DNA of 64,000 nucleotides from Vicinamibacteria bacterium (GTDB lineage Bacteria; Acidobacteriota; Vicinamibacteria; Fen-336; CBDFGD01). The position numbers and the translations under genes were made by a program. This document shows, piece after piece, positions 2-48,585 of the stretch. Each line of letters begins with the position of its first letter. The stretch's first letter is position 1. The stretch is from the NCBI GenBank assembly GCA_965246965.1, contig CBDFGD010000002.1:3701208-3765207 (forward strand), in the 5' to 3' direction. Under the pieces are notes generated by a model that saw only the letters and a list, made by a program, of their open reading frames with translations, ran no database searches and was not told where the DNA came from.

Positions 2-2179
2 GAAGGCATCCTCTCGAAAGCCGCCACGGCTCCGGTCGCCCTGAATCCCGATCTACCTGGCGAGATCGAGCGCATCATCAACACCGCCCTCGAGAAAGAC
101 CGTCAGACCCGCTATCAGCACGCGGACGACCTGCTCGCCGACCTGAAACGGCTGCGCCGGGATACGAGCTCGGGCGAGTCCCGGGCTCACGTGGCGGCGG
201 TGCCGGTGGCGACAGGAGCGGACGACGAGCTCTCCATGAGCCGCAGCGCCGTGAGGGCTGCGCGGCGCCATTGGAAGCTCGCGCTCCCCCTGGCAGCAGT
301 CGTCGGCGCGGCGACGATCGCGCTCGTCCTTCAGTCGCGCGAAGGGCCGGCTCTCACCGATCGCGACACGATCCTGCTGACAGACTTCACGAACACGACC
401 GGAGAAGACGTCTTCGACGAGACGCTGAAGCAGGCGTTGCGCGTCCAGCTCGAGTAGTCGCCCTTCCTCAAGCTCGTTGGTAGTGGGCAGGTCCGCTCCA
501 CCCTCGAGCGCATGAAGCGCTCTCCGGACGAGCGTCTCACGGTGCGGGTCGCCCGTGAGGTGTGTCAGCGAATCGGTGCGAAGGCTCAGATCGCCGGGTC
601 GATCGCCAAACTCGGTTCGAGCTACGTAGTCGCTCTCGACGCTCAGGAATGTGCTGTTGGCGAGTCTCTCGCCCTCGAGCAGGAACAGGCGGCAGGCCAG
701 GAGGCCGTGCTCGGCGCCCTGGGCGACGCGGCGCGGCGCCTGCGCGGGCGGTTGGGAGAATCCCTCGCTTCGGTCGCGAAGCTCGACGTCCCGATCGAGC
801 AGGCGACGACGGGCTCCCTCGAAGCGCTGAAGGCGTACAGCCTCGCGAACCAGGAGCGCAGCCGCGGCAACACGGAGGCCGCGATCCGGAGCTTCCGCCG
901 CGCGATCGAGCTGGACCCCGACTTCGCCGTGGCTCACGGAGAACTCGGCACTACCCTGGGCAACAGGGGAGAGCTTCGCGCGCAGCACGAACACTACCGC
1001 CGGGCCTTCGAGCTTCGCGACCGCGTCAGCGAGCTGGAGCGCCTCTACATCTCCGCGCACTACTACAACTCCGTCACCGGAGAGGTCGACAAGGCCCAGG
1101 CGGTTTACGAGCGGTGGAAGAAGACCTACCCGCGCGACTGGACGCCCGTGAACAACCTCTCGGTCCAATACCTCCGCTCGGGGGATCTCAATGCGGCTCT
1201 GGACGAAGCCCTCGCCGCGCTCGCCCTGGAGCCGGATCACGTGCTGCCGTACGCCAACGTCGCGGCGAGCTACTTCTTCATGGGGCGATTCGACGAGATG
1301 CGGGCCATCGTCGCGCGTGCCCACGGGCGCGGGCTAGACAGCTCGACGCTTCGGCTGTTCCTGTTCTGGGCCGGCGTGTGCGATGGTGCCGGCGACGAGC
1401 GCGGGGCCCAGCTGGCGGCGGAGGGTCACTCCGCCGAGCACCGGCTGCTGGGCGCCGCGGCCGTCGAAGCCTGGTCGCACGGGCGGCTGGAGGACTCTCG
1501 CACCTTGGGGGAGCGAGCGAGTCGTCTGGCGAGGGAAGCGGGAAACCCGGAGACCGGCCATCGCTGGACCCTCGACCTGGCAGCGGGGCATGCGCTGGTC
1601 GGGCGGGCTCGTGAGGCGCGCACGTTGATCGCGTCGGTCGAGGCCGACGACGGCGGCGAGGAATCGCTTCGCCTCGCGCTCGCGCGGGCCCTGGTCGGCG
1701 ATAGGGACGGCGCGTCGCAGCTGGGCGACGAGCTCAGCCAGGCTGCTCCGCACGACTCCTACCTGTAGAAGACCGGCTTGCCGTCGCTGCGAGGCGCCGT
1801 GGCTCTTCACTCCGGTGACCCGCGCGCCGCGGCCGACCATCTCGAGGCACTGGGCCCGCTCGACCTCGGCCAGCCCGGGCTGACCATCTACCTGCGCGCC
1901 CGCGCTCACCTGGCGTCGGGTGACGCGGAGCGCGCCCTGGCCGAATACAACTGGATCCTCGACCATCGCGGGCGCTACTGGCACAACCTCGGCCCCAGCA
2001 TCACCCTGCCCTTCCAGCAACTCGCGCTACTCGGCTCGGCCCGTGCGCACGCAGCCCTCGGCGACACATCTGCGGCGCGCCGCGCCTACGAGGACGTCCT
2101 CGCACTCTGGCAGGAAGCCGATCCCGACTTCGAGCCGGCCCTCCAAGCGAAGCGCGAGCTGACCGCGCTTGGCTCCTAG
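2..2179 (+). pseudogene. Ser/Thr protein kinase, C-terminal part (kinase C-lobe, one TM helix, long TPR-like periplasmic domain); 5' partial; two internal in-frame TAG codons
   Basis: One continuous frame (frame 2) gives ...LADLKRLRR..., a TM helix (LALPLAAVVGAATIALVL) and TPR-like repeats. The TAG at 455-457 falls inside a segment that reads as a continuous conserved motif (QLE*SPFL). Second in-frame TAG at 1766-1768; terminal TAG at 2177-2179. Confidence 0.6.
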
Positions 2180-2777
2180 CCGTTACTTCCGGGGGGGGGG
2201 TGCGCTTGACCGCCTCCTCGCGGTTGCGGATGTCCTCGTCCCAGTACTCCTCGAGCGGGACGCCGAGGCCGTCGATCACACGGTTGCACCAGGCGAAGAA
2301 CCCGGCGATGAAGTTCGCGGCTGCGATCGCCTGGTCGCTGTAGCCGACATTGCGCATCCTTTCCAGGAGCTCCTCGGTCACGTCCCACGGCGTCTCGGTG
2401 AGACGGATGACGTAGTCGAGCAGCGCCCGCTGCCGTGGCGCCACCGCCGCGGTATGCGGATTGCGTTTCAGCCCGCTGACCAGCTCCTCGTCGCCGCTCT
2501 CCCGGAGCAGCCCCCGCGCGTGGTGCTCGATTCAATAGTGGCAGCCGTTGAGCACCGAGACGGTGACCGCCACCATCTCGCGTTCGACGTAGGGGAGGTC
2601 ATTGGTACCGTGCATGACCCGCTTGTAGAAGAGCATCAGCGAGTCGAGCGCGTCCGGGACAGGCGAGTGGGCGAGGATGATGTTGTCGGTCGCGTCCCCG
2701 AGCCCGTAGCGCTCGTAGACCCGCTGGAGCTTGCCGCGCGCGTGCGCCGGTAGGGTGTGTTCGATCCACCACTTCAT
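2001..2777 (-). CDS. AhpD-like / carboxymuconolactone decarboxylase family protein with in-frame TGA at the second Cys of the CxxC motif (selenocysteine candidate); 3' end probably shorter (G10 homopolymer at 2191-2200)
   Basis: ATG at 2777-2775 overlaps the upstream TGA (ATGA). Reads MKWWIEHTLPAHARGK...VLNGCHY[TGA]IEHHARGLL, the CMD/AhpD CxxC..H active-site pattern with TGA (2532-2534) where the second Cys is expected. The Arg-rich tail after the 10-G run looks out of frame. Confidence 0.6.
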
Positions 2778-3250
2778 GGAGAGTCTCCGCTCGTGTCTTG
2801 GGTCGCCGCGCGAGCGGTGGATTCCTCCCTTTCCTCCATCACGCGATCGAAGCTCTTGCGCAGGTCCGGCAGGTTGGCGGCCAGCGCGGTGAACTCCCCC
2901 TTGGGCAGGCTCAGGCAGTCCGTCGGCTCCATGCAACGGATCGTGGCGGTGCGCCGGGTCTCGTTGAGCAGCGCCATCTCGCCAAACGTCTCTCCTTGCG
3001 AAAGCGTGGCCAGGCGCTGCTCAACGCCGCCGTCCAGGTGTTTGATGACCTCGACCTTGCCGCGCATGAGGATGTAGACGCGGTCGCCGAGGTCGCCCTG
3101 GCGGAACACCTCCTGGCCGGGTTCGAAGTGCTCGCGGTGGATGCCGCGCGTCCCCTGCAGCTTCAGCTGCACCAGCTCGCGGGGTAGGAACAGATCGTAG
3201 GTCCAGGAGGTCGCGACCTTCATGCGGTGGCCCCAGCCAGGCAGCTTCAT
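2774..3250 (-). CDS. Orphaned 3' fragment of a disrupted gene: NDH-2 C-terminal membrane-anchor segment plus cyclic-nucleotide-binding (CNB) domain
   Basis: N-terminus MKLPGWGHRMKVATSWTYDLFLPRELVQLK matches the conserved NDH-2 C-terminal tail motif (from memory); it is followed by a Crp/CNB-like fold (FGEMALL..RRTATIRC). The ATG lies inside the transposon target-site duplication and is in frame with ndh across the insertion. Confidence 0.65.
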   Translation of the reverse strand: MKLPGWGHRMKVATSWTYDLFLPRELVQLKLQGTRGIHREHFEPGQEVFRQGDLGDRVYILMRGKVEVIKHLDGGVEQRLATLSQGETFGEMALLNETRRTATIRCMEPTDCLSLPKGEFTALAANLPDLRKSFDRVMEEREESTARAATQDTSGDSP

Positions 3251-3311: not shown

Positions 3312-4220
3312 GTGAGAGAACGATTCAACACGATGAAAGGACTACCTGTCATGAACATTCTACAGATTTTCGAGCGGTTCCCCACACAGCGCGATTGCAT
3401 CGCCCATCTCGAGCGCGCCCGATGGGGTGAGATCCCGCGTTGCCCCTACTGCACCTCCAACCGCACGGCGCGGCTTCAGCATCGACACCGCTGTTACGCG
3501 TGCAAGACCTCCTTCAGCGTCACGGTAGGGACAATTTTCCACCATACCCACCTGCCACTTCAGAAGTGGTTCCTCGCCGTCATGCTCATATTGAACGCGA
3601 AGAAGGGACTCTCAGCGCTTCAGCTCTCGCGGGATCTGAAGGTGAACAAGAACACGGCGTGGCGGATCTCGATGCAGATTCGAAAGGCGATGACGCAAGC
3701 CAATCAACGCCCCCTGCTGACTGGCATCGTCGAGATGGACGAGACCTATGTCGGCGGAAAACCTCGCAAAGGTGGCCCTCCGTCGAAACCTGGGCGCGGA
3801 ACGAAGAAGACACCCGTGATTGGGGCTATTGAACGCGGCGGCTCGGTCACCGCGACGGCGACGAAGAAGACCAGACTGCAGGGGCGTCATCTCCGCGCCT
3901 TCGTGAAGGATCGTATCGACACCACCACGGCCAGCTTGATCACCGATGAATACAAGGGCTACCTCGGCATGGCGAAGGTGCTCCCGCACGCCGTCATCAA
4001 ACACGCGCAGTGGTACGTCGATGGTCAGATTCACACGAACACGATTGAAGGCTTCTGGGCGCTCCTGAAACGCGGCATGTTCGGTCAGTTCCACAGCGTC
4101 AGCCGGAAACACCTGCAACGCTACGTGGACGAGTTCTGCTATCGCTACAATCTGCGGGGCGTCGAGCCCGATCATCAGTTTGCTCTCACCATCGACAGGG
4201 GATTAGGGGTGATCGGATGA
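3312..4220 (+). CDS. IS1595-family transposase (N-terminal zinc ribbon + DDE domain)
   Basis: CPYCTSNRTARLQHRHRCYACKTSF zinc ribbon; MDETYVGG and ...NTIEGFWALLKR DDE region typical of ISXO2-like IS1595 transposases. Confidence 0.85.
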   Translation: MRERFNTMKGLPVMNILQIFERFPTQRDCIAHLERARWGEIPRCPYCTSNRTARLQHRHRCYACKTSFSVTVGTIFHHTHLPLQKWFLAVMLILNAKKGLSALQLSRDLKVNKNTAWRISMQIRKAMTQANQRPLLTGIVEMDETYVGGKPRKGGPPSKPGRGTKKTPVIGAIERGGSVTATATKKTRLQGRHLRAFVKDRIDTTTASLITDEYKGYLGMAKVLPHAVIKHAQWYVDGQIHTNTIEGFWALLKRGMFGQFHSVSRKHLQRYVDEFCYRYNLRGVEPDHQFALTIDRGLGVIG

Positions 4221-5095
4221 GCATTCCGAAGGCCACGCACACCGGTGAACTCCAAATCGGACCCGTCACCATCGACTGCGCGGTGCTAGATAACGGGCTG
4301 AGAGTCCTGACTCAATCCGGCGTACTTCGTGCCTTAGATCGGTCGAGTCGTCCACAAGGAAAGGGAGCCCGTTTCGAACAGATTGCCCCTTTCCTCGCCT
4401 CTGACAACCTTAAACCCTACATAACAAAGGAACTAGCCGCTTCGAGCAGGCGCATCCGTTTCGCTGTACCAGGACGAGGACACGTTTACGGCTATGAAGC
4501 AGAACTGCTTCCGAAAGCCTGCAACGTATACCTCCAGGCGCGTGATGCCAGAGTGCTTCTTCCCTCGCAACAGCGTACAGCGGCCGCAAGTGATGTGCTG
4601 ATGCGCGGTCTAGCGATGGTAGGCATTGTCGCGCTCGTCGATGAGGCCACGAGTTACCAGGAAATCAGGGATAGGAAGGCCCTGAACAAGATCCTCGACA
4701 AGTACTTGCTGGCGGAACAAGCGAAATGGGCGAAGAGATTTCCTGATGAGTTCTACAAGCAAATCTTCCGGCTTCGAGGGTGGCAATGGCAGGGCATGAA
4801 GGTGAATAGACCGCAAGTTATTGGACGGTACACGAACGATTGCGTGTGGGATCGGCTCGCCCCTGGCGTCAGGAACGAACTTGAGAAACTGAACCCAAAG
4901 ACCGAAACAGGACGCAGGCGAGCCATGCATCACCAATGGCTGACGCACGATGCGGGCCATCCGGCGCTTCAGAAGCATATCAGCGGCGTGATGGCGCTCA
5001 TGCGGGCCTCGACCAAATGGGACAACTTCACGAGGCTGTTGCAACGTGCCTATCCGAAGATCAACACAAATCTAGAGCTACCCATCGACGAATGA
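4217..5095 (+). CDS. Hypothetical protein, passenger gene of the transposon (possibly phage-type P63C-like domain)
   Basis: ATGA overlap with transposase stop; 292-aa ORF in the low-GC island; DEATSYQEIRDRKAL motif. Assignment to a named domain is from memory only. Confidence 0.45.
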   Translation: MSIPKATHTGELQIGPVTIDCAVLDNGLRVLTQSGVLRALDRSSRPQGKGARFEQIAPFLASDNLKPYITKELAASSRRIRFAVPGRGHVYGYEAELLPKACNVYLQARDARVLLPSQQRTAAASDVLMRGLAMVGIVALVDEATSYQEIRDRKALNKILDKYLLAEQAKWAKRFPDEFYKQIFRLRGWQWQGMKVNRPQVIGRYTNDCVWDRLAPGVRNELEKLNPKTETGRRRAMHHQWLTHDAGHPALQKHISGVMALMRASTKWDNFTRLLQRAYPKINTNLELPIDE

Positions 5096-6342
5096 GTAGT
5101 CCGAACTGGGCGCACCAAACCATCTGGACGGGGGATTGCCTCGACATCCTACGCGGCATGAACTCGGCATCGGTCGATCTCGTCTACCTCGATCCGCCCT
5201 TCAACTCGAAAGCGAACTACGCCGCGCCCATCGGGAGCAAGGCGGCCGGTGCAGAGTTCAAGGACATCTGGACGCTCTCGGACGTGGACGTGGAATGGAT
5301 CAACCTCATCGAGGCGAAGCATCCAGCGCTGTACCGCGTTCTGCTCGCTGCAATGACCAACAGCGATAAGTCGTATCTCGCCTACATGGCCGCGCGGCTA
5401 CTCGAACTTCGCCGCGTACTGAAGCCTACCGGATCGCTCTTCCTCCACTGCGACCACACGATGAGCCACTACCTCAAGGTGGTCATGGACTCGATCTTTG
5501 GGCGACACCAGTTCAGGAATGAAATCGTTTGGGCATACTCTGGCTGGAACAAGCAATTACGGGCTCATATAGAGCGTCGGCATGACGTTGTGTTGTTCTA
5601 TGCGGCGTCGAAAGTATCGAAGTTTAACTACCCGACTCGCCCTTGGGATGGCAAGGCCGAATACGTCAAGACTCGGAAGCAGAAGGTCCGGGTTGAAGAC
5701 GATAGGCGAGAGTACGTGTTGTCCGATGCGGGGGGTGGAAAGCGCGTCAAGCGCTACCTCGACGAAGCCATGCAATACGGCGTCCCTTTGGACGACGTGT
5801 GGCGCATCGACAAGCTAAACAACTCGGACAGGGTGGAACGCACCGGCTACCCGACGCAAAAGCCGGTGGCTCTATTGGACCGGATCGTTAAGGCCAGCAC
5901 CAACGCCGGAGACATGGTATTGGACCCGTTCTGCGGGTGCGCGACGGCGTGTATCGCCGCCGAACAACTCCACCGGAATTGGGTAGGTATCGACGTCTCA
6001 CCGAAGGCGGCAGAGTTGGTCCGACAGCGTATGCGCGACGAGCTTGGCCTCTTCTACGATGGTGCTCACCGCACGGACATTCCATTTCGAACGGACCTTG
6101 GCAAGCTGCCACGCTACAACAGCCCAGAGAACCGCCGATGGCTGTACGGCGACCAGGGCGGTCACTGCGCGGGGTGTAACGCCCATTTCGAACCACGTCA
6201 TCTGGAAGTCGATCACATCATTGCCAGGCAGCGGGGAGGCACACACGCGCTGGACAATCTGCAACTGCTCTGCGGCAATTGCAACCGGATAAAAGGAAAC
6301 CGTGGCATGGACTACCTGAGAACCAAGTTACAGCTCAGGTAG
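5092..6342 (+). CDS. Beta-class amino-DNA methyltransferase (N6A/N4C, DPPF motif) fused to a C-terminal HNH nuclease domain
   Basis: Motif IV VDLVYLDPPFNS precedes motif I DPFCGCATA (beta order). C-terminus HCAGCN...EVDHIIARQRGGTHALDNLQLLCGNCN is an HNH motif. ATGA overlap with the upstream gene. Confidence 0.8.
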   Translation: MSSPNWAHQTIWTGDCLDILRGMNSASVDLVYLDPPFNSKANYAAPIGSKAAGAEFKDIWTLSDVDVEWINLIEAKHPALYRVLLAAMTNSDKSYLAYMAARLLELRRVLKPTGSLFLHCDHTMSHYLKVVMDSIFGRHQFRNEIVWAYSGWNKQLRAHIERRHDVVLFYAASKVSKFNYPTRPWDGKAEYVKTRKQKVRVEDDRREYVLSDAGGGKRVKRYLDEAMQYGVPLDDVWRIDKLNNSDRVERTGYPTQKPVALLDRIVKASTNAGDMVLDPFCGCATACIAAEQLHRNWVGIDVSPKAAELVRQRMRDELGLFYDGAHRTDIPFRTDLGKLPRYNSPENRRWLYGDQGGHCAGCNAHFEPRHLEVDHIIARQRGGTHALDNLQLLCGNCNRIKGNRGMDYLRTKLQLR

Positions 6343-48117: not shown

Positions 48118-48585
48118 TTACGTCTCCTCGATGTCCGCCTTGATGTCGATCGGGATCGAGCCCCTGACGCTCGTCGCTGCCGGGCACTTCTGCTCGTGCG
48201 TCGCGATCGCGCGCTCGGCGGCGTCTCGTTTGCCCTTCGGGATCTGAAGTGAGTAGCGGACCCGGATGCTCGTGATCCGGAGCACCTTGTCCGCCTCGCC
48301 GACGTCGCCCTCGACGTTGGCGATGAGGCTCTCTCTCGTCACCGGAATTTCGCGCACCTCCAGTGCACGTGCAAGGGTGCCGAGCAGTCAGCCGCCGACC
48401 GCGGCCACGATATGATCGAGCGTCGCCGGCACCTCCTCTTCAGGCTCCACGCCGTAGAACCGCTTGATCTCGCTGTGGACGCCGAACCGGAGCGGCTCGT
48501 CGAACGGTGCCACCCACGCGTGCCGGATCGGGCCTTTGATACGCTCGACACGAACGCGGCTGGTGTAAATCTCCTGTATCGCCAT
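48118..48585 (-). CDS. OsmC/Ohr-family peroxiredoxin-like protein with in-frame TGA at the first conserved (peroxidatic) Cys position (selenocysteine candidate)
   Basis: SD GAGGAG 5 nt before the ATG (48585). Reads ...LDHIVAAVGG[TGA 48388-48390]LLGTLARALEVREIP...HEQKCPAATSVRG.... The TGA aligns with the Cys of the AAxxGC motif; the second Cys (KCP) is present; same frame continues to the TGA at 48118. Confidence 0.65.

Follow-up and report, generated by a model that had tools for sequence, protein, structure and literature searches.

A stretch of 64,000 nucleotides from the genome of a Vicinamibacteria bacterium (hereafter the window, meaning the whole stretch) carries on its minus strand, at 48118–48585, a gene of the OsmC/Ohr superfamily in which an in-frame UGA stands in place of the codon for the catalytic Cys. 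Judged from sequence comparison across related genomes, this locus is very probably a true selenoprotein gene whose UGA encodes selenocysteine (Sec). It is not a new kind of selenoprotein, as OsmC-like selenoproteins have been known since 2005.

An OsmC-family reading frame with one internal UGA

The coding sequence comprises 155 codons and a TAA stop, as supported by translation, Pfam and full-length homologs, and on translation the frame from 48585 to 48118 contains one internal stop only, the TGA of codon 66 (48390-48388), which we read as Sec. The minus strand runs ...LDHIVAAVGG-TGA-LLGTLARALEVREIP...HEQKCPAATSVRG..., which sets the TGA between the peptides VAAVGG and LLGTLARALEV, with HEQKCPAA further on. 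A Shine-Dalgarno element read from the sequence, GAGGAG (48596-48591), lies 5 nt upstream of the ATG at 48585-48583, and an earlier start is ruled out by an in-frame TAG at 48600-48598, beyond which this ATG is the first possible start. Listed under standard stops, the locus appears as two open reading frames (ORFs) of 65 and 79 residues. The two halves each have the composition expected of a coding sequence, with GC contents of 0.83 and 0.87 at third codon positions and of 0.42 and 0.46 at second positions. Stricter scans of the whole window for TGA-split ORFs with coding-like flanks returned few candidates; in one scan the OsmC-like locus was the sole convincing protein among seven, and a context-based scan added one further case, an AhpD-like gene with a TGA at 2534-2532.

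When Cys is substituted for the stop, the protein matches the Pfam OsmC family (PF02566) with E = 7.3e-13 and 49.2 bits, against a gathering score of 27.5. In alignments with PDB sequences, residue 66 falls on Cys60 and Cys134 on Cys124 of the P. aeruginosa Ohr protein (1N2F), and the OsmC-like protein 4MH4 gives the same two-Cys alignment. Cys134, encoded by the TGC at 48184..48186 within a KCP motif, is presumed to be the resolving Cys. A family alignment of 81 full-length members has U66, G69, T70, L71, C134 and P135 invariant (81/81), while R21 (78/81), H37, G38, K41, F43, Y44, D57 (79/81), R78 and E92 are conserved in at least 95% of members. In Ohr, the catalytic partners of the peroxidatic Cys are Arg18 and Glu50.

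The fold was modelled with AlphaFold for a Cys-bearing homolog, P0002, which is 63% identical to the window protein (predicted local distance difference test (pLDDT) 84.5; predicted template modelling score (pTM) 0.81). The top 50 PDB matches shown by Foldseek for this model were all OsmC, Ohr or OsmC-like proteins, each with probability 1.00, and on the strength of the P0002 model the window protein is assigned the OsmC fold. Outside the Pfam match lies a family-specific motif, GVHGGIKxFYG, at codons 35-45 (48451-48483); it lies in the only low-confidence stretch of the P0002 model, residues 37-47 with pLDDT <50. At codon 143 (48157-48159) the window protein has Ser (VRG-S-IPI), a position that is Cys (RGC) in at least 90% of the C-terminal fragments aligned, making this a third, non-universal Cys of the family.

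A scan of relatives limited to one genome per species returned 113 matches, of which the best 80 provide the locus counts given here. A TGA occupies the Sec column in all 80, with the frame and the protein conserved on both sides. Most of these loci belong to metagenome-assembled genomes (MAGs) of Vicinamibacterales, and complete chromosomes of that order are among them (e.g., OY759970.1, OZ244838.1 and OZ252227.1). Other carriers come from Bryobacterales, Terriglobia, delta-proteobacteria, Desulfomonilaceae, Dehalococcoidia, Clostridia and Acidimicrobiia, and two Bacillota isolates, Cytobacillus sp. NCCP-133 and Mesobacillus maritimus MER TA 152, also carry the TGA form.

Protein databases reflect the same column. 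A first protein search found N-terminal fragments ending in ...AAVGG, fragments of 85-94 residues that cover the C-terminal part from just past that point, and four full-length proteins, three with W at the Sec column and one, P0002, with Cys. When P0002 was used for a HMMER scan over 1.84 billion representatives, the best 150 matches, which were classified, comprised 49 with Cys at the column, 4 with W, 36 N-terminal fragments ending just before the column and 21 C-terminal fragments starting just after it. The 49 Cys-bearing protein clusters are more distant than the TGA loci, and in a metagenomic sister clade the column is TGC or TGT in 76 loci. Because TGA loci and Cys-bearing homologs coexist, column 66 is a classical Sec/Cys pair. 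In JGI data, full-length relatives are labelled ‘uncharacterized OsmC-like protein’ and the fragments ‘organic hydroperoxide reductase OsmC/OhrA’, labels that we take to be COG1765 (OsmC-like) and COG1764 (OsmC/OhrA), respectively. The original prediction had described a single minus-strand frame with a Shine-Dalgarno sequence, an ATG and an in-frame TGA at 48388-48390, which translation confirmed; the homolog alignment that it proposed as a check does place the TGA on the first conserved OsmC Cys, with the second (KCP) intact, a TGA in 80/80 related loci and Cys homologs in existence.

The four proteins with W at the Sec column (P0001, P0003, P0004 and P0023) speak for another possibility, namely an alternative genetic code in which UGA stands for Trp or Gly (code 4 or 25). 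P0001 is the only W call whose DNA was read, and its locus (L081) shows TGA where the protein has W and does not translate to the query protein under table 11; its W therefore comes from a gene call under another code table. Within the window, a composition-based map singled out 55 ORFs as likely genes, and about 30 of these have TGA as their stop; the standard code therefore applies, and it was on this stop-codon usage that the alternative code was rejected. Moreover, in-frame TGAs inside coding-like window sequence are limited to two redox-Cys positions, and the GC content of the window is 57-71%, unlike that of known code-4 and code-25 lineages. Taken with these observations, a reassigned code can be given practically no credence. 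Trp at the Sec column also occurs in the public gene calls P0065, P0160 and P0168.

A hairpin under RNA-level selection downstream of the UGA

When 60 nt are folded from the UGA onwards, an 8-bp hairpin, CGUGCACU-GGA-GGUGCGCG, is formed. With nucleotides counted from the U of the UGA, its stem pairs nt 22-29 with nt 33-40; on the minus strand it occupies 48369-48351, with the 5' arm at 48369-48362, the GGA loop at 48361-48359 and the 3' arm at 48358-48351. We annotate it as the putative core hairpin of a bacterial Sec insertion sequence (SECIS). The consensus for bacterial SECIS elements, that of the bSECISearch model, gives a loop of 3-9 nt with a G in its first two positions, a stem of 4-16 bp, a distance of 16-37 nt from the UGA and a minimum free energy (MFE) of at most -7.5 kcal/mol, with the pattern N1-G-[G|U]-N-N2 (PMC13188914). 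The window hairpin lies within all four constraints, having a GGA loop, 8 bp, 26 nt between UGA and loop, and -10.2 kcal/mol for the hairpin alone, and an alternative reading with a 5-nt loop, U-GGA-G, fits the pattern. It shares no sequence similarity with the SECIS of E. coli fdhF.

The pairing is conserved beyond the window. Among 55 distinct Sec-form sequences, which align without gaps, 96.1% of cells are paired, and compensatory changes are seen at four of the eight stem pairs: pair 22-40 (CG 29, GC 17), pair 27-35 (AU 41, GC 9), pair 23-39 (GC 38, CG 3) and pair 26-36 (CG 51, UA 2). At pair 27-35, the synonymous choice between the Ala codons GCA and GCG tracks a Val/Ala change four codons on. 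None of 500 shuffles reached the observed pairing and covariation values, slid registers pair at 19-67%, and RNAalifold independently predicts the same 8-pair helix. The region that the original prediction had nominated for a SECIS, 48330-48387, thus does hold a hairpin with covariation, but the pairing that it had pointed to, GCACC with GGUGC, is not the conserved one; GCACC (nt 11-15) pairs with GGUGC only in an alternative fold of a 50-nt excerpt (z = -0.09).

The sister clade with Cys at the column provides a control that encodes a similar peptide. In 80 metagenomic loci of this clade, the motif could be located in 76, representing 67 distinct sequences; the codon at the column is TGC in 61 and TGT in 15 of the 76, and the peptide GALEAR or GALEGR is kept. 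In the 22-29/33-40 register, Sec forms make on average 7.69 of 8 pairs (55 distinct sequences) and Cys forms 5.72 (67 distinct sequences), a difference with a Mann-Whitney p of 6e-19. The third codon positions at nt 24, 27, 30 and 36 have entropies of 0.66, 0.91, 0.13 and 0.36 bits in Sec forms, compared with 1.47, 1.54, 1.64 and 1.53 bits in Cys forms, while outside the stem the two sets do not differ in how freely third codon positions vary. The Leu codon that supplies the loop G at nt 30 is CUG in 54 of 55 Sec forms, compared with CUC in 28, CUG in 23 and other codons in 16 of the 67 Cys forms. Synonymous sites in the hairpin are hence under RNA-level selection, and only in the TGA forms.

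Three divergent Sec forms lack the 22-40 hairpin (L064:2968-3018, L078:2998-3048 and L080:2998-3048) and instead carry, about as far from the UGA, hairpins that are shifted or different. They come, as a group, from Acidimicrobiia, Desulfomonilaceae and an Acidobacteriota MAG, and their differences suggest SECIS turnover within the family.

Weighing Sec against other fates of the UGA

Several observations weigh against the selenoprotein reading. The stem sits in codons for a conserved peptide, ALEV/AR, so that the peptide accounts for some of the potential to form a hairpin, and the pairing could in part be a by-product of protein conservation. The MFE of nt 18-45 fails to separate Sec from Cys forms (p = 0.2), and a close Cys form, P0022 (L082:533-991, TGC), still makes 8 of 8 stem pairs. 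Thermodynamics alone is weak, with z = -2.07 for the 60-nt fold (-22.6 kcal/mol) and z = -0.09 for the 50-nt fold, and Rfam gave no SECIS or other meaningful match, either for the whole window at gathering thresholds or for 48200-48500 at E up to 10. In addition, the shuffle control overstates the independence of the Sec forms, many of which are related Vicinamibacterales. Finally, selA, selB, selD and a tRNA-Sec are all missing from the 64-kb window, where a six-frame motif scan for SelB and SelD signatures also found nothing; an ARAGORN search covering the window and the first 60 of the 80 loci turned up no tRNA of any kind, tRNA-Sec included. Given the weak single-sequence thermodynamics, we rely on the register-specific pairing and the synonymous-site constraint. 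In P0022, a synonymous change from CUG to CUC has turned the loop from GGA into CGA, and this form may have switched from Sec to Cys only recently, with its SECIS now decaying.

A competing account takes the TGA as a true stop, whether because the locus is a pseudogene, because a Cys codon was misread in sequencing or assembly, or because there are two separate small ORFs, those of 65 and 79 residues. Gene callers do treat the TGA as a stop, and the relatives' database entries are fragments of 85-94 residues. Against this stand the identical TGA in 80 of 80 independent assemblies, with both halves conserved as protein, and the selection on synonymous sites around the hairpin in TGA forms only, which together exclude an error or a decaying gene. 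The first start downstream of the TGA, moreover, is a GTG 11 codons past it, and initiation there would break up both the active-site helix and the OsmC fold. A true stop is, on balance, extremely improbable.

The failure to find the Sec machinery in the window would also suit a recoding of the UGA to something other than Sec, be it Cys, through a tRNA(Sec)-like tRNA(Cys) UCA and a SelB paralog, or a residue carried by a suppressor allo-tRNA. Opal suppressors of the selC* tRNA(Cys) type and acidobacterial allo-tRNAs have been described, and selC* tRNA(Cys) acting with a SelB paralog has been proposed for some delta-proteobacteria (PMC5389517); a SECIS-like hairpin could serve such a system too. 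However, the same TGA and hairpin in distant lineages (Bacillota isolates, Dehalococcoidia and Clostridia) fit the universal Sec system better than a suppressor confined to one lineage, and selC* has been reported from Firmicutes, Thermodesulfobacteria, Nitrospirae and Proteobacteria, not from Acidobacteria (PMC5389517). For Cys, a plain TGC would suffice, as it does in the Cys clade, and the tRNA scan of the window and of 60 loci showed nothing unusual. We therefore regard recoding to another residue as very unlikely and retain Sec as the residue at codon 66. Selenoproteins are known in Acidobacteria (PMC1794560), while a literature search on Vicinamibacter and selenocysteine found nothing relevant. 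If the selenoprotein reading is true, this genome fragment comes from a Sec-using bacterium, in all likelihood an acidobacterium related to Vicinamibacterales.

Function, known relatives and genomic surroundings

The account that follows, from the insertion of Sec through the peroxidase chemistry to the identity of the reductant, is inferred. By analogy with bacterial selenoprotein genes, the SECIS hairpin within the coding sequence would recruit SelB carrying Sec-tRNA(Sec), and the Sec delivered by SelB would be inserted at codon 66 to yield a 155-residue selenoprotein. Sec66 would then be placed at the start of the active-site helix, the site of the OsmC/Ohr peroxidatic Cys, where its selenolate could reduce a hydroperoxide and become a selenenic acid. 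Cys134, in the CP motif, would capture the selenenic acid as a selenenylsulfide, and a thiol reductant would reduce the latter, regenerating the enzyme. A peroxidase function seems somewhat more probable than another role, our confidence being lower here than for the selenoprotein assignment because function is drawn from family membership.

The 2005 study of the Sargasso Sea by Zhang, Fomenko and Gladyshev (PMC1088965) described a selenoprotein family under the name ‘OsmC-like protein’ (COG1765, PF02566, UxxT), and OsmC-like is still listed as a single selenoprotein family in a 2026 review (PMC13188914). The window protein shares with the Sargasso Sea family the PF02566 domain, Sec in place of the redox Cys, a SECIS just downstream and the existence of Cys homologs. 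In place of UxxT, however, it has U-L-L-G-T (Ux3T, with Thr at +4), and whereas the Sargasso Sea family is one of marine plankton, the present clade is found mainly in soil Acidobacteriota (Vicinamibacterales) and has its own N-terminal loop, GVHGGIKxFYG. The best NCBIfam match of the window protein is NF041052, ‘OsmC-related (seleno)protein’, yet at 27.7 bits against a cutoff of 95; for seven other diverse members, six scored 17.5-25.9 bits against the same cutoff and one gave no match at E <=0.01. With the Ohr and OsmC peroxidases (1N2F; E. coli OsmC 1QWI/1NYE), the protein shares the fold and the two aligned Cys positions, the second in a C-P motif, but it has Sec where they have the peroxidatic Cys. 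It scores 16.8 bits against TIGR03561 (Ohr; cutoff 88.85) and 18.9 bits against TIGR03562 (OsmC; cutoff 85.8), and other clade members reach at most 30.4 bits with these two models, below the cutoffs.

With scores this far below the NF041052 and Ohr/OsmC cutoffs and with Ux3T instead of UxxT, we place the protein in a new, uncurated clade of a known kind of selenoprotein. A more far-reaching proposal, which we hold only tentatively and consider rather unlikely, is that this is a distinct OsmC clade, all-Sec among the close members fetched and marked by GVHGGIKxFYG and, in Vicinamibacterales, by a DUF255 neighbour, with a substrate or redox partner unlike that of Ohr/OsmC. In the public data examined, this widespread soil clade is mis-annotated, as truncated fragments or as W calls under the wrong code table, and no curated NCBIfam model captures it. 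The practical value of the gene thus lies in corrected annotation, in a new seed for a (seleno)protein model and in one more Sec/Cys pair that marks a catalytic residue, whereas the understanding of Sec decoding and of OsmC chemistry is unchanged.

The DUF255 neighbour is the recurrent feature of the surrounding genes. The gene that follows on the same strand in 49 of the 80 loci, ~300-500 nt downstream of the OsmC-like gene (e.g., L001:3301-4782), encodes a protein of ~490 residues whose N-terminal domain is DUF255/Thioredox_DsbH; this protein could be the redox partner of the selenoprotein. The window itself lacks this gene. Eight neighbours of the OsmC-like gene there were compared, encoding LpxB, a response regulator, SPFH, DinB_2, FlK thioesterase and MatE proteins along with two unannotated ORFs, and none of them lies beside the gene in the 80 loci. 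In the Cytobacillus isolate the neighbours are transporters and a glycerate kinase, which are uninformative.

Near the start of the window, an AhpD/CMD-like gene on the minus strand (2176..2777, ATG at 2777-2775) is a second selenoprotein candidate. Its TGA at 2534-2532 lies in a CxxU arrangement and is read as ...VSVLNGCHY-U-IEHH, and the protein passes the NCBIfam model TIGR01926 (119.1 bits against a cutoff of 81.8) as well as the AhpD core domain model. Downstream of the TGA, a hairpin, GCUGCUC-CGGGA-GAGCGGC (2511-2493, minus strand), has 7 bp, the loop CGGGA, 27 nt from UGA to loop and a predicted energy of -10.1 kcal/mol. The closest homologs are fragments that begin just after the TGA, while more distant homologs have CxxC, with Cys at the TGA column. 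Selenoproteins of the AhpD-like CxxU type are already known as a family (PMC1088965), and the candidate lends indirect support to Sec decoding by this organism. The original prediction had taken two redox-Cys positions carrying TGA in one window as a sign of genuine Sec decoding over random nonsense errors: the AhpD-like CxxU gene supplies one of the two, and at the OsmC Cys that view is supported by the 80/80 TGA, the Cys homologs and the hairpin covariation.

The 3' end of the AhpD-like gene is uncertain. Its in-frame stop is at 2001-2003, past a low-complexity tail that overlaps a plus-strand gene (1778-2179). A run of ten C residues at ~2191-2200, as read on the minus strand, lies near this end, and a one-base shift there would move the end to ~2176 (PPPGSNG followed by a stop); the run could thus represent a homopolymer length error that hides a frameshift. 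Directly upstream of the AhpD-like gene lies a gene for a cyclic nucleotide monophosphate (cNMP)-binding protein (2774-3250), and beyond it an IS1595/ISXO2-like transposase gene on the plus strand (3312-4220; PF12762 and PF12760). The segment of the window from 4001 to 6000 has a lower GC content (0.57).

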